Sequence record: KP869100
Strand: one strand, 5' to 3'
DNA length: 64,000 nt
Source: Escherichia typing phage 1
The first letter of the stretch is position 1. Every line of letters begins with the position of its first letter. A program made the position numbers and the translations under genes. This document shows positions 983 through 14,702 of this stretch, piece after piece. The notes beneath the pieces are model-generated. The model had not been told where the DNA came from. It searched no databases and saw only the letters and a program-made list of their open reading frames with translations.

Positions 983-992
983 AATATCTTAA

Positions 993-1019
993 GAGCCTCC
1001 TTAATTGGGGGCTTTTTTT
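993..1019 (+). terminator. intrinsic terminator
   Basis: GAGCCTCC-TTAATT-GGGGGCT hairpin followed by TTTTTTT, just after stop at 980-982. Confidence 0.6.
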
Positions 1020-1021
1020 AA

Positions 1022-2560
1022 TTTTTATAAAAATTTTATCGGTTGTTCCAACCTCTGGGTCACCATCATATGTGAATAAAATATCTATCCTTCTTAACAA
1101 CCTTCTTAATCTTACTCTCTATATATAGTTATATAGTACTATATAGTGTCTTAGTAACTATCTAGTGGTCTTAATAGCCCCTCTGTATAACCCTTCTAAA
1201 TAGCCCTCTAAACACTCTTCTAACAAGCCTTCTTAACAACCTATACAATCACCTTAACCATCTCTCTATACGCTCTTAGAAGCCTCTATACACCCCTTAA
1301 TCTCTATGTCAGCTATGATACTCTCTATAGGTGTTCACTAGGCACTACTAAGCCTCTATATAGACTGTTTTAACAAACTTAACAGGAATATCTTTACAGA
1401 CCTTATCTCACAAGGTCTAACACGGTACTAACAAGGTATCTTATAAGCCTGTTTCTACCTGTATTTTTAAAAGACTGTATAAGTAATTATTCAGAATTTT
1501 AAAATTTTTATAAAATAAGACTGTCAAGTCATTTTTTAGGGTCTTTGAAGGAACTCAAAAATATCTGTAGAAGATGTATATCTGCTTGGTAGCCCTTAAC
1601 AGCTCCCTTACAAGTACTTTGCAAAATTTTAAAATATCCTTAACAACATCTTAACAACTCTCTCAAGCTCTTAACATCTCTTCAAAGGTCTTAACAGTTT
1701 CTTAACAGAACTAACAAGAACTTAACAGTTTTCTAACAAGCTTTGGTAGGGCTTTACAGAATCTTAACAGATAACTAACAAGAGCTAACAAGTTAATTTT
1801 AAAGAGTTATTTTGTTAAGATAATTAACAAGTTCCTAACAAGTGTTTAATCTTTTTAACAAGCTATTAACATGGTCACTATCTCTTTTCTTATCGTTCCC
1901 TTTCTCTCTTAGTGATTCTCTAAACATACCTTTTAAAAGCTCTCTATAGCTCCTTGTAAGCTCTTTTAAGCCTCTTCCTAGTATCTACCCCTCAACTGTA
2001 TGGATAGCTCTTTATAGGGCTTTACAGGAGCTTTTAAGGCTATGTCAAAGGTTCTTACAAGGCTTTTACGTGGTCTTAACAGAGATTTAACAAGGGGCTA
2101 ACAAGTTGCTAACAAGTGCCTTAAAAGCATAACTATGTAGGGATTGTTAAGAAATTGTTAAGGGGGCTAGCATTTACGTAACTTTTAAGCTACTTCAAAG
2201 TAACTTTATAGCCCCTATAACATACTTTTAAGACACTAACAAGCCCTTTTTAGTAGTTCACAAGATAGCTAACGAGATGATAAAGCTCACACCCTTATAA
2301 GATTCTTTTAAGGCTCTAGAAAGCTCTATAAAGGGCTTTTTAGAGTGGGTTAATATGATTGCTTAAGTTAGGTTGATAAGGCTGTTATAGGGCTTTATAG
2401 AGCGTTTAAATGGTTGCCCTTCCCTTTCGGGTTATGGGCTTATATTTAAGTTGATTTGATAAGGGGTTATAGAGTAAGCTATAGAGTTATTGCTTTTAAG
2501 GTACGGGATAGATTCTAGGAAGGAAAGGAAAGGGATTGTATAGAGTCTCTTTATAGACGT
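1022..2560. repeat. non-coding repeat-dense region (oriented yTAACAr and CTATAG-type short repeats)
   Basis: No credible ORF; more than 25 same-orientation copies of CTTAACA/CTAACAAG-type cores, 15 of them within 1640-1880, plus many CTCTATAG/TTATAGGG copies; bounded by terminators. Confidence 0.7.
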
Positions 2561-2613
2561 AAAAAAGCCCCTATGAGAAGGAGCTTTTCAGGTATCTGGG
2601 GCTATTTAGCCCC
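2561..2613 (-). terminator. terminator region ending the long minus-strand transcription block
   Basis: AAAAAAGCCCC..GGAGCTTTT and GGGGCTATTTAGCCCC hairpins flanked by A/T runs, just downstream of the stop at 2624. Confidence 0.45.
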
Positions 2614-2623
2614 GCTGCGTCGA

Positions 2624-2872
2624 TTAGTTGTAACCTTGTTTGCTGTAGTACAGAGAGACAATCAAGTCACCCCAATAATGGTAGTGAGATTCCTCGTTTA
2701 TGGCTTCTTTTACGGCATCTTTCCAGAAGTCATCAGTAGGGTTATAATCTGGTATCACCTGCTGAATCAGCATTTTGATAAGGTCAAAGGTGTTATCTGT
2801 TCCACCGATATCGAATTTTGCATCAAGTTGGTGGCAGCCATAAGCATTAACAGTTACGCGGATAGTTGACAT
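2624..2872 (-). CDS. hypothetical small protein
   Basis: 82-aa ORF; start directly downstream of a type-A cassette SD. Confidence 0.5.
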   Translation of the reverse strand: MSTIRVTVNAYGCHQLDAKFDIGGTDNTFDLIKMLIQQVIPDYNPTDDFWKDAVKEAINEESHYHYWGDLIVSLYYSKQGYN

Positions 2873-2966: not shown

Positions 2967-3204
2967 GCCTTTTTTCGTTGTATTTTGTCAGAATTTCACA
3001 AGATAGAACATCGTACATTGTAACCGCTTTGCTTTTGTCGAGGTCAAAAAAGCCAAATGCTTTACCATCTTTGAATCCGACAACTTCGTAAGATTCTTTA
3101 ATGATTTCACCATTGAACAAATCACTTTCGATACGGTGAAACAACGCTACGTCTTCTTTGTCAGTTGCAATCTGCAATAGTGTGGTTAATTCTACGTGTT
3201 CCAT
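2941..3204 (-). CDS. hypothetical small protein
   Basis: Track ORF 2941..3309 trimmed to the ATG at 3202-3204 because the upstream part is occupied by cassette A2. Confidence 0.45.
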   Translation of the reverse strand: MEHVELTTLLQIATDKEDVALFHRIESDLFNGEIIKESYEVVGFKDGKAFGFFDLDKSKAVTMYDVLSCEILTKYNEKRLATYANMQ

Positions 3205-3297
3205 TTTTGAATCTCCTAGTTTAAGGACTTTACTTAGTGGGAAGGTTAATCCCTCCCCGTTGATTGACAATTTACAGACTTTTGATTGTCTCGTCAA
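3205..3297 (-). promoter_or_regulatory. type-A cassette A2 (TTGACG-N17-TAAATT + hairpin + SD)
   Basis: -35 at 3292-3297, -10 at 3269-3274 (minus strand), conserved leader and TAGGAGATTC SD. Confidence 0.55.
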
Positions 3298-3802
3298 TAT
3301 CTTTTTCAATATCTTTTAAAGTTTTTTCTAAGTTCTTGATATTGAAGGATAAGCCTTCACCGAGAGTCTTAGAATAACCGCTAGGACGTAAATCATAAAG
3401 GCCAATTTGTTCTACATTGGAGAGGTTGACCATTTCACCGCTTACATCATAAGCTATTGATACGGTGTTTTCAGGGGCTTTATAGAACTTGTTAAGATTC
3501 TTGATAGAACGTTCATAAGCCATTTTATAACCATTTAAAAGGTCTTTAACGTGGTTGCGAACGTTTTTACACTCATCTAAGTAAATACCTAAGAATAGCG
3601 GTAACAGTTCTGCTACAGCTTGCATAAAGTGAGATACTACAACAGTAGAAACATTACGACGATGTATATAATAAGCCCCGTTTTCTGATTTAGTGATAGT
3701 TGCAAAGTGTACACCGTTGCAACGAAATTCGAAGGTATCTTTAACGGGTTTAGTCATAACGTTAGATGAGCGAATGTAGTTGATAGCTTGAAACTTGTTC
3801 AT
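3272..3802 (-). CDS. hypothetical protein
   Basis: 176-aa ORF preceded by cassette A3; no recognised domain. Confidence 0.55.
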   Translation of the reverse strand: MNKFQAINYIRSSNVMTKPVKDTFEFRCNGVHFATITKSENGAYYIHRRNVSTVVVSHFMQAVAELLPLFLGIYLDECKNVRNHVKDLLNGYKMAYERSIKNLNKFYKAPENTVSIAYDVSGEMVNLSNVEQIGLYDLRPSGYSKTLGEGLSFNIKNLEKTLKDIEKDIDETIKSL

Positions 3803-3895
3803 TTTGAATCTCCTAGTTTAAGGACTTTACTTAGTGGGGAAGGTCATTCCCTCCCCGTTGTTTAGTACTATACTTGTTTTGATTTGCCTTTGCAA
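3803..3895 (-). promoter_or_regulatory. type-A cassette A3 (TTGCAA-N17-TATAGT + hairpin + SD)
   Basis: -35 at 3890-3895, -10 at 3867-3872 (minus strand), conserved GGGGAAGGTCATTCCCTCCCC hairpin and SD. Confidence 0.55.
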
Positions 3896-4365: not shown

Positions 4366-4450
4366 TTTAGAATCTCCAGTTTAGGATTGAGTGGTAAAGC
4401 TCTTTATCTGGGGCTTACTATACAGACTAATAAGCCCCATGTAAAGTACT
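4366..4450 (-). promoter_or_regulatory. type-B cassette B1 (AAAGTACTTT palindrome + GGGGCTTA/TAAGCCCC hairpin + conserved leader + SD)
   Basis: Perfect 8-bp inverted repeat GGGGCTTA..TAAGCCCC at 4410-4438; leader AGATAAAGAGCTTTACCACTCAATCCTAAACTGGAGATTC precedes the ATG. Confidence 0.55.
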
Positions 4451-12274: not shown

Positions 12275-12966
12275 TGTTTAACTAACATAGTTTTAATGTG
12301 TGGAAGGATTCTGTTTACCTTCTGAACATTATTCTCTGTATCTTCTATAAAGCATACTATATTAAAGTAAGGAAGAATGCAAGACTGAATCATCCTCACT
12401 TTCAAACTTTCTGCACTTATAGAGTTAGTTCCAAAACCACGCATAAAAAGCAAGTAATCATGCTCTATATTGTGCCTTAAAAACATCTCAGTAGGTATTC
12501 TCTGAGATTCACCTCTTGCTGTCAAGAGTCCAACTGCTGCATGATTTGCAATTGCATCAATAATGTTGAAAACATATGTTGGCTTTGCTCTTACAGAATC
12601 AAGAAGATTAGTGTACTGTGAGAATGAACCATCAGTCAATTCCGTTGAGCAATCTTCGTGATTAAAATTTGTAAGAACACCATCAATATCTGCTAAGATG
12701 AGGTTACCTTTTTCTACAAGGTCTTTATTGACTATGACTAAACTATCGCGCCTTACACCTATAGTTTGTCCAGTCTCTTTGTCCACAACGTTCACAATTG
12801 GTTCTGATGTGTGGAACTCTTCCAGTGAACATACAACTTCTCTTGCAGTGTCTTCAAAATCCCTACACTGTTCTGGAGTCCATACACAGGAATCAAGACC
12901 TAACTCATGAGGATGTAAGTCATAAGCGTGGCACAGGACTTCATCAGACTTTTTTAATTTTTTCAT
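12271..12966 (-). CDS. HAD-superfamily phosphatase-like protein
   Basis: 231 aa; LILADIDGVLTNF matches HAD motif I (DxDGVL). Confidence 0.45.
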   Translation of the reverse strand: MKKLKKSDEVLCHAYDLHPHELGLDSCVWTPEQCRDFEDTAREVVCSLEEFHTSEPIVNVVDKETGQTIGVRRDSLVIVNKDLVEKGNLILADIDGVLTNFNHEDCSTELTDGSFSQYTNLLDSVRAKPTYVFNIIDAIANHAAVGLLTARGESQRIPTEMFLRHNIEHDYLLFMRGFGTNSISAESLKVRMIQSCILPYFNIVCFIEDTENNVQKVNRILPHIKTMLVKH

Positions 12967-13492
12967 GGTTTACCTTAGAAATGTTTGTTGCAAATTCACA
13001 TTGAGCAATAACTTTCATGTTGTTATAGACATCTTGAGAATATTTCTTAGCTTTAGGGATTCTGTACGAATACCCAGCATTATATGATGCTAAAACTTTT
13101 TGTAAAGTCTTCTTTGACTTTGGGTGACCATGCACCTTCGTCCAAAACTCAAGCTCTTTATGTGTTTCTTTTGCGGCATAGTCAAAATCTTTTAAGAGTT
13201 TCTTTTTAGCAACATTAGGACTAATTTTGTTACGCTTTACAACAGTCTTCAAGTGATTCTGGAAGATACCATAGTCATGGGTCTTTTTATTTTCTACCTT
13301 CAGACCTAACTCTGACTCTTGTAAGGCTATAGCTGCTAGAGTGATACCCCAACCTTTACCCATGTTATTCTCACCATACTGGTAAGCTTTTAACATGTTC
13401 ACTTTTTGGCTAATTGATAGTTCTGGGCAGTCAACTGCATAAGATAAGTGTGCTGTAAACATTAAGCACAAACCTAGAATCAATTTCTTCAT
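12944..13492 (-). CDS. secreted lytic transglycosylase (SLT domain; candidate endolysin)
   Basis: 182 aa; N-terminal signal peptide; SLT motifs ALQESELG, GIFQ and AYNAGYSY. Confidence 0.65.
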   Translation of the reverse strand: MKKLILGLCLMFTAHLSYAVDCPELSISQKVNMLKAYQYGENNMGKGWGITLAAIALQESELGLKVENKKTHDYGIFQNHLKTVVKRNKISPNVAKKKLLKDFDYAAKETHKELEFWTKVHGHPKSKKTLQKVLASYNAGYSYRIPKAKKYSQDVYNNMKVIAQCEFATNISKVNHEKIKKV

Positions 13493-13592
13493 TGGTTCTC
13501 CTGTTTAGTTTATCGTGACATCAATTATACAGCACTCTGCACAAAATACAAATAAAAAAGGCCGCCGAAGCAGCCTTTTAAGAAATTACTTA

Positions 13593-14702
13593 TTAGATTT
13601 CACGTTTACGTTGAGAGATGAGTTCACCAGCAGTGCCAACGATGACATGCAAAGCTTCAGTCTTACCGTCCCATGCTTCCAGCACTTTACGTTGATTATC
13701 AACGATTGCTGCAACTTCATAACGAGAGGAACGCATCTTCATATCATTGTAATCAGTTGGAACAGATACAACATCTCGTGGATGTACGCGAACCTTCAGG
13801 ATTGTATCACCTGAGAAGCAACGAACATAATCCCAAGCACCAACATGAAGACCTTGAGAGCAAGTTACGTTACGGTTATTATCAACCATCCAACGTGGCA
13901 TTTCTACAATGTTACCCAAATCATTAGGCACTTTGTAGGTGTGAGAGTCAACCAGCTTGCCTTCACGAGTAGAGACTTTCTTCCAACCAATGATGTAGCC
14001 TTCTTCATCAATTTCAACATCAAGGTGAGATACAAATCCCCAAAGTTGTTCTACAGAATCTTTAGATGGGTTTTCCATCAGTTTTTCGAAGAACATTACA
14101 AGTCGTTCAAAACCTTTATCGCCAGTTTTCATCATGTGAAGAATACGGTCAACCAGAGTAGAACGCATCTCAACAGCACCGTAGAATAGCTTGTCGCCTT
14201 TGATTGTGATAGCACCCTGAGTGAAGTTTTCGATAGACTTACGAATGTTCATCAGTTCAAATGCTTTCTTGAACTGACCTTTCACAACATGAACTACAAT
14301 CTCTTGATAGTTCGGATGAGTAGACTCAACAATTTCAGATTCTGAACCATAAGTCATAATTACAGAATCACCAGTAATCATGTACTCAATCTTGTCATCT
14401 TTCTGCATAGCTTCGTGCAGTTTATTTACTGGAGCTTTCTGTACAGTGTCTTTAACGACCTTTTCAACTGGTTTGCCAGCTTTCTTTTTAAAAGTCTTAG
14501 CAAATTGTTTCAAAGTCTTCGTAGCTGGTGTAGAAGTTGCCTTCTTCTTGCCTTTTAAGGTTGCTTCATGACGCTCTACAGCACGACCAACTGAACGGGT
14601 TGAAGTATTGAACTTCTGTGCAATAGCTGTTTTAGTCAGCTTACCTTCTTTAACCAGTTTGTAAATTTCTGCGTCAATCTGTGCTTTAGTTTTAGTAGTC
14701 AT
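13593..14702 (-). CDS. putative rIIB-like protein with N-terminal HTH
   Basis: 369 aa; immediately downstream of the rIIA-like gene as in T4; HTH-like LTKTAIAQKFNTSTRSVGRAVERH; assigned by synteny only. Confidence 0.4.
   Translation of the reverse strand: MTTKTKAQIDAEIYKLVKEGKLTKTAIAQKFNTSTRSVGRAVERHEATLKGKKKATSTPATKTLKQFAKTFKKKAGKPVEKVVKDTVQKAPVNKLHEAMQKDDKIEYMITGDSVIMTYGSESEIVESTHPNYQEIVVHVVKGQFKKAFELMNIRKSIENFTQGAITIKGDKLFYGAVEMRSTLVDRILHMMKTGDKGFERLVMFFEKLMENPSKDSVEQLWGFVSHLDVEIDEEGYIIGWKKVSTREGKLVDSHTYKVPNDLGNIVEMPRWMVDNNRNVTCSQGLHVGAWDYVRCFSGDTILKVRVHPRDVVSVPTDYNDMKMRSSRYEVAAIVDNQRKVLEAWDGKTEALHVIVGTAGELISQRKREI

Follow-up and report, generated by a model that had tools for sequence, protein, structure and literature searches.

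A lattice of 11-bp repeat units at the probable concatemer junction of a Felix O1-type phage

The stretch of Escherichia typing phage 1 analysed here (64,000 nucleotides of sequence record KP869100, called the window) contains, between two convergent gene blocks, a non-coding region of about 1.5 kb (positions 1022-2560) that is packed with short repeats with the core TAACA. By sequence similarity, the window is from a Felixounavirus, a Felix O1-type myovirus of the Ounavirinae: 255 phage records match the segment 1000-2600 and 197 of these cover at least 80% of it; nearly all are Felixounaviruses (Felix O1, wV8, ECML-1 and others) and the identities at the best place are mostly 80-92%. The Felix O1 counterpart of 1000-2600 is 12329-13910, and this stretch sits between two convergent transcription units, genes 97-131/1-23 and genes 40-24 (Whichard et al.). 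The papers on Felix O1 and wV8 make no comment on the homologous stretch.

An earlier annotation from the letters alone (the original prediction) had described the region as free of credible open reading frames (ORFs) and as flanked by convergent terminators, and both statements hold. No ORF of 36 or more amino acids lies wholly within 1022-2560; the longest internal ones are three ORFs of 30-35 amino acids, and a minus-strand ORF of 59 amino acids (921-1100) overlaps the left edge. Within the same limits no tRNA was found and a search of Rfam at a permissive threshold gave zero matches. Any reading frame would be broken by the indels of 1 bp and 11 bp that are found among the relatives. With no conserved ORF, no tRNA and no Rfam match, protein-coding, tRNA and known structured RNA readings were dropped. 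The terminator of the + strand gene block was called by a terminator scan, and the wV8 and Moogle records annotate one at the homologous place; the hairpin that ends the minus-strand block is absent from the output of the scan and was read directly from the sequence, and Moogle again has an annotated terminator at the homologous place.

Within 1022-2560, the + strand has 29 copies of the motif TAACA and the minus strand four, while the window-wide rate predicts 2.7 copies and 1000 dinucleotide-preserving shuffles gave 2.9±1.6 with a maximum of 9. The predicted number of more than 25 TAACA-type copies is thus correct, and the statement that all have the same orientation is nearly so: four copies, at 1813, 2145, 2156 and 2383, are inverted. 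The count of 15 copies within 1640-1880 is exact, and the clusters of CTCTATAG/TTATAGGG and the AT-rich patch (near 1465-1535) that had been pointed out are both present. Eleven of the 28 TAACA spacings are exactly 11 bp (shuffles: 0.006), and the region holds 14 of the 15 same-strand TAACA pairs of the whole window that are 9-12 bp apart, as well as all ten + strand copies of the octamer CTAACAAG. The repeat array is real and highly non-random.

Comparison with relatives whose genome ends are mapped makes it very probable that the region is the concatemer junction of the phage and holds a direct terminal repeat (DTR) together with the cut sites. Four related records carry an exact duplication at both ends: Ro111lw (613 bp), Pr103Blw (581 bp), the Citrobacter phage HP1 (570 bp; Mooglevirus) and the Hafnia phage SPARTY (439 bp; Kolesnikvirus); in the records of Pr103Blw and HP1 the terminal repeats are also annotated. 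In all four, the repeat begins directly after TGTATATCTGCTT, and in the members of Felixounavirus and Mooglevirus its last letters are TGTTAAGGGGGC, after which comes TAGCATTTACGTAAC or a closely similar sequence. These boundary sequences occur once in the window, which places the repeat at 1588-2167 (580 bp). By homology, the cuts would fall between 1587 and 1588 (after TGTATATCTGCTT, before GGTAGCCC) and between 2167 and 2168 (after TTGTTAAGGGGGC, before TAGCATTTACG), with one copy of the repeat in concatemer and assembly and one copy at each end of the virion DNA. The junction would then read: + strand genes, terminator, left flank, cut, repeat, cut, right flank, terminator, minus-strand genes. 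Conservation of the 20-bp blocks across the two cuts is 100% at one and 97% at the other in 11 relatives from three genera. Many GenBank records of relatives start or stop inside the region, and in a sample of 60 records, 10 have an end no more than about 25 bp from a boundary, which arbitrary opening of assemblies cannot explain.

Published experiments on relatives point the same way. PhageTerm assigned the DTR packaging mode to Ro111lw and Pr103Blw (PMC6454146, PMC8303462). The ends of UAB_Phi87 were determined by Bal31 digestion and run-off sequencing as a DTR of 608 bp, its restriction pattern was unchanged by heating, and the large terminases of UAB_Phi87 and Felix O1 cluster with DTR-type terminases (PMC4837284). 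Defined by the boundary motifs, the UAB_Phi87 repeat has 614 bp and the terminal SpeI fragments are predicted at 4431 and 2751 bp, in rough but not exact agreement with the published 4322 and 2819 bp.

The original prediction had left open whether the array marks a replication origin, a packaging (pac) site or a genome terminus. The last of these is borne out, as relatives with mapped ends put both cuts of a non-permuted repeat of about 580 bp inside the region; judged by homology, the same sequence stands at both ends with fixed boundaries, as in the short exact DTRs of the T7 type. A pac site in the strict headful sense (circularly permuted ends) is rejected, since the repeats of the relatives are exact with identical boundaries and the PhageTerm class is DTR; understood as a broad packaging-recognition region, the pac option is the best reading. 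A cos site is rejected as well, because the ends of the relatives are duplicated over 439-614 bp and the UAB_Phi87 pattern did not respond to heating.

Table 1. Features at and around the predicted concatemer junction (positions in the window)
Feature	Position	Strand	Comment
Intrinsic terminator of the + strand gene block	991-1019	+	from scan: 10-bp stem (991-1016) and T-run
Left unique flank	1022-1587		predicted to adjoin the right-end DTR copy on its inner side in the virion
AT-rich patch with overlapping palindromes	1465-1535		about 50-120 bp outside the left cut; 83-92% conserved
TGTATATCTGCTT, just outside the left DTR boundary	1575-1587	+	identical in 11 of 11 relatives compared, both Kolesnikvirus phages included
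Predicted direct terminal repeat (DTR), 580 bp	1588-2167		boundaries by homology to relatives with mapped ends
Forward YTAACA arrays	1594-1874	+	16 TAACA and also TTACA variants, usual spacing 11 bp; an inverted copy at 1813
TTTGCAAAATTTTAAAATATCC block	1617-1640	+	about 30 bp inside the left end; 95% conserved
Central TAACA-free DTR segment	1875-2060		pyrimidine-rich tract 1881-1909; CTCTATAG, CTTTTAAG and CTTTACAG units
Four TAACA units with exact 11-bp spacing	2074-2117	+	copies at 2077-2114
Inverted TTGTTAAG units (two, 11-bp spacing), then GGGGGC	2143-2167	-	end at the predicted right cut
Right unique flank	2168-2560		predicted to adjoin the left-end DTR copy on its inner side in the virion
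Terminator-like hairpin and T-run, end of the minus-strand gene block	2561-2585	-	read directly from the sequence

The repeats are distributed unevenly over the three parts of the junction (Table 1). Of the 29 forward TAACA copies, 20 lie inside the DTR: a pair begins 7 bp from its left end, 13 copies follow at 1641-1790 and four at 1825-1871, in addition to the four in front of the right cut. In most relatives the right cut is preceded by three inverted units, one 11-bp TGTTAAGAAAA unit more than in the window. The left flank is C-rich on the + strand, with a lattice of about 11 bp made of CTCTATA, CTTAACA and CTAAATAG-type units, and has a mean identity of 87% to 11 relatives. The right flank begins with TAGCATTTACGTAAC, is G-rich, carries CTTTTAAG and TATAGRG units and has a mean identity of 82% to the 11 relatives.

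The 11-bp spacing extends over the whole region. Same-base autocorrelation has a peak at lag 11 in the left flank (0.36), the DTR (0.44) and the right flank (0.37) as well as in the region as a whole (0.39), compared to a background mean of 0.27 and a background maximum of 0.30. Harmonics at 21-22, 31-32 and 42-43 indicate a period near 10.7-11 bp. A tiling procedure resolves the whole region into 137 degenerate units of about 11 bp, one turn of the helix each, with the consensus tCTTwAyAgg; unit types include CTTAACAAG, CTCTATAG, CTTTTAAG and CTTTATAGG. In the DTR, YTAACA(A/G)G is the dominant unit and keeps one orientation, except that the two or three units next to the right cut are inverted; the flanks are built from other unit types than the DTR. 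In the literature searched, we found no published description of the lattice, of its orientation rules, of a length ladder of 11 bp or of genus-specific flank motifs. The termini themselves had been recognised and annotated in relatives before; the lattice is the new part as far as that literature goes.

Conservation was examined in an alignment of 12 sequences spanning Felixounavirus, Mooglevirus and Suspvirus. Within the repeat, TAACA positions are 96% identical to the window, compared to 82% for the rest of the repeat. The individual positions of Y-T-A-A-C-A are 92-97% conserved (82-93% when compared with the other genera) and the spacers 74-77% (60-63%); conservation climbs again one unit to either side of YTAACA, resulting in a periodic footprint. 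Besides single bases, indels are mostly of 11, 12 or 22-24 bp, and the DTR lengths of ten phages fall on a ladder with 11-bp steps: 569/570, 580/581, 591, 603 and 613/614 bp.

In Kolesnikvirus (phages of Erwinia and Hafnia), only about 90 bp near the left DTR end still align; the TTTGCAAAATTTTAAAATATCC block lies within this stretch (1617-1699 in the window), the sole part of the window's DTR that aligns with this genus. In the 439-bp Kolesnikvirus repeat, no 5-mer is nevertheless commoner than TAACA, which shares first place with the overlapping TTAAC. TAACA has 14 forward copies there and, towards the right end, 7 inverted ones. The non-coding junction measures about 1.45 kb and has an autocorrelation peak at 11 bp. 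In the right flank of SPARTY, TTAGAAG (12 copies) takes the place of the TATAGAG and CTTTTAAG units of Felixounavirus, indicating that the motif of the repeat was kept across the genera examined and that the motif of the flank differs.

These data bear on the possibility that the array is neutral, satellite-like DNA, in which 11-bp slippage filled a dispensable spacer and only the cut sites matter. Frequent indels of unit size, unit numbers that vary among relatives and repeat lengths that range from 439 to 614 bp are what such an origin would leave behind. However, the motif cores are conserved far above the spacers and in a periodic footprint, Kolesnikvirus has retained the motif and its orientation even though its DTR can no longer be aligned, and about 1.45-1.5 kb of non-coding DNA are retained across the subfamily in genomes that are about 90% coding. 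We consider a neutral array very unlikely; the lattice is probably a selected protein-binding array.

The binding partner could also come from the host: a nucleoid protein (IHF, Fis or H-NS) or DNA curvature might bend or condense the junction without any phage-specific reader. AT-rich cores alternate with G/C spacers at about 10.7-11 bp over the whole region, as expected for such a scaffold, and matches to the IHF consensus with one mismatch are somewhat more frequent than expected (6 on one strand and 5 on the other, against 1.8), but the latter is explained by the TAACA units themselves and an exact IHF consensus is absent from the region. Predicted static curvature is unremarkable, with a mean of 7.0 versus 6.2 degrees per turn, a value of low weight because of the wedge parameters used. 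Strict conservation of the YTAACA hexamer and of its orientation, together with the genus-specific flank motifs, argues for sequence-specific readers that co-evolve with the phage, and a host scaffold of this kind is distinctly improbable.

A replication origin is compatible with a terminus, and the two could overlap: the phased repeats would be initiator iterons and the AT-rich patch an unwinding element. Oriented direct repeats indeed adjoin an AT-rich, palindrome-rich patch, and the region is at least as conserved as the neighbouring genes (77% versus 71% identity to HP1). Typical iteron origins have a few repeats of 17-22 bp beside an AT-rich unwinding element and mostly an adjoining initiator gene; the units found here have 8-9 bp and follow each other with a period of 11 bp about 137 times over 1.5 kb. 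Moreover, the boundaries of the array and the switch in orientation coincide with the predicted cut sites, no replication-related or initiator domain is recognisable in the adjacent genes, and the site is convergent and bracketed by terminators, all of which leaves an origin unsupported and, in our estimate, unlikely. GC skew changes its sign only with gene orientation and is uninformative on this point.

Least probable of all is a transcribed non-coding RNA or small-RNA array. Fold z-scores of -1.7 to -3.0 for three segments are modest and accounted for by the palindromic nature of the units, and the weak promoter-like matches that are present do not exceed those in shuffled sequences (8 versus 5.6±2.1). 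The negative Rfam result and the convergent terminators on both sides argue against an RNA product, and so does the long inverted repeat around the right cut, which is not kept in relatives. This 35-nt inverted repeat was rejected: it is not preserved because the numbers of units differ among relatives.

The explanation that we favour, with moderate confidence, is a concatemer junction at which a protein-binding lattice in phase with the helix directs terminase recognition and the formation of the ends. Replicated genomes would be joined head to tail via a single copy of the 580-bp repeat; during packaging, the DNA would be cut at the two fixed sites and the repeat duplicated, so that each virion chromosome has a copy at both ends. 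In DTR phages in general, concatemers are joined by one copy of the repeat and cutting is sequence-specific, while the pathway that makes the second copy is incompletely understood even in T7 (PMC3350473, PMC10438801). The units of the lattice would be binding sites that each present the same face of the helix, and a phage protein could polymerise along the array from head to tail. The likeliest candidate for this reader is a small-terminase-like recognition partner of the large terminase; a small terminase was not identified in Felix O1 (Felix O1 paper). The reader may mark the repeat, position the two cuts and tell the repeat from the flanks: inverted units at the right cut would reverse the polarity of the protein there, and the different units of the flanks would separate outside from inside. 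That the lattice binds protein is the firmer part; that it serves packaging or end formation we infer with slightly less than even confidence.

Several points weigh against this explanation. The ends of this phage are placed by homology to its relatives. For UAB_Phi87, published and mapped values differ by 6 bp for the repeat and by 70-110 bp for the SpeI fragments; the numbers of the UAB_Phi87 paper are themselves not internally exact, as the published fragments sum to 7141 bp and the distance between the SpeI sites plus 608 is 7176 bp. Slippage, rather than selection for phase, could be the source of the unit-sized indels. No binding protein was identified: the TerL gene lies outside the 64-kb window, and the five genes that flank the region have no Pfam match and belong only to PHROGs of unknown function. 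The cut sites show little inverted symmetry (z 1.8-3.1), and none in Kolesnikvirus; the idea that the two sites form an inverted pair was rejected for this reason. To our knowledge, the function of the short-repeat arrays of T7, the system used for comparison below, is itself unsettled.

Among the systems compared, the homologous junctions of UAB_Phi87, Ro111lw, Pr103Blw and HP1 are closest in sequence: the mapped or annotated DTRs of Felixounavirus, Mooglevirus and Kolesnikvirus have the same two boundaries and a similar length (439-614 bp). The reports on these DTRs give length and position of the repeat only, and we found no motif lattice, orientation or length ladder in them.

The closest mechanistic relative is, by analogy, the concatemer junction of T7, which reportedly (Dunn and Studier 1983) has a terminal repeat of 160 bp and the short-repeat arrays SRL and SRR. 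In the T7 record, CCTAAAG is present three times in the 160-bp repeat and eight times in the left flank, all in one orientation. The right flank has variants of it, the left array shows an autocorrelation peak at lag 13, and an AT-rich patch is found immediately beyond the left cut. Both junctions thus combine a short exact DTR with an oriented, A/T-cored short motif in repeat and left flank, variants in the right flank and an AT-rich patch by the left cut. This is a resemblance in architecture without sequence homology and does not indicate common descent. The arrays of T7 extend over a few hundred bp with a spacing of about 13 bp (left), whereas the Felix O1-type lattice is about three times longer (1.5 kb) and locked to 11 bp; also unlike T7, it has most of its copies within the repeat, an inverted orientation of the last units and different unit types in the flanks.

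More remote parallels concern the way the sites are read. The R-sites of lambda cosB, the hexamers of P1 pac and the pacL/pacR boxes of SPP1 are multiple short sites close to where the DNA is cleaved and are bound by the small terminase, some of them phased by about one helical turn. The comparison is limited to how these sites work and is between 3-7 elements in 100-200 bp at cos or headful sites there and more than 100 units at an exact DTR here. The 11-bp repeats of R1 parC and the omega heptad arrays are centromere-like sites of plasmids, bound by ribbon-helix-helix proteins. In terms of mechanism, they resemble the lattice in having many short direct or inverted units that are read cooperatively, in parC about one per turn, but their biological role is different and the junction has no partition genes nearby.

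A more specific model is tentative and, in our own estimate, rather doubtful. The region may act as a new kind of 'terminus organiser' of about 140 turns with oriented, phase-locked sites of 8-9 bp, read by a phage protein that could be a cryptic small terminase or an end-binding protein. YTAACA would be the subfamily-wide code that marks the repeat, and genus-specific flank codes (TATAGAG/CTTTTAAG in Felixounavirus, TTAGAAG in Kolesnikvirus) would show the side to the packaging machinery; the length of the repeat would be held to whole helical turns, with the cuts in register.

Recognition and duplication of the ends in phages with short exact DTRs are poorly understood outside T3 and T7, and Felix O1-type phages are widely used in Salmonella typing and biocontrol. 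A conserved, quantised lattice can serve as bait for finding the missing recognition protein and allows simple engineering tests of unit number, orientation and scrambled cores. With the two boundary sequences, the true ends can be set without new experiments in the many Ounavirinae assemblies that were opened arbitrarily. Three findings go beyond the original prediction: where the DTR begins and ends, the extension of the 11-bp lattice over all 1.5 kb, and the presence of inverted copies next to the right cut.

Arrays with the same spacing also exist elsewhere. A scan of viral contigs for four TAACA copies at 11-bp spacing returned more than 120 contigs, only 14 of them Felix-like, and the lead was discarded; the remaining contigs have short perfect tandem arrays in unrelated viruses, with no shared context. 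The tandem arrays of 11-bp TAACA units in IMG/VR include CTTAACAAGTT in 5-7 copies and TTTAACAATTC in more than 15 copies, and one IMG/VR contig with a perfect array of this type encodes a giant-virus major capsid protein.

Some records (UAB_Phi87, LMP25/33/34 and JLBYU28) have 'hypothetical proteins' of 25-49 amino acids annotated inside the non-coding junction. These are unlikely to be genes because of the 1-bp and 11-bp indels among relatives, and the two boundary sequences flag them as probably spurious. One record with an organism name that starts with 'Staphylococcus' matches the Felix-type junction and is probably a mislabelled or contaminated entry.

The gene adjoining the right flank (2624-2872, minus strand) encodes an acidic protein of 82 amino acids with no Pfam family and no recognisable DNA-binding features; by its position it is taken to be the homologue of Felix O1 gene 23, the product of which was found among the virion proteins by proteomics (Felix O1 paper). 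Further into the minus-strand block, a module of about 70 bp recurs between successive genes (2874-2945, 3201-3275 and 3801-3874), in which a ribosome-binding site comes after the hairpin GGGGAAGGTCATTCCCTCCCC. The module may be a cassette of terminator and translation start that is used repeatedly; its homologues in wV8 are annotated as the direct repeats DR_2, DR_3 and DR_5 and overlap terminators.

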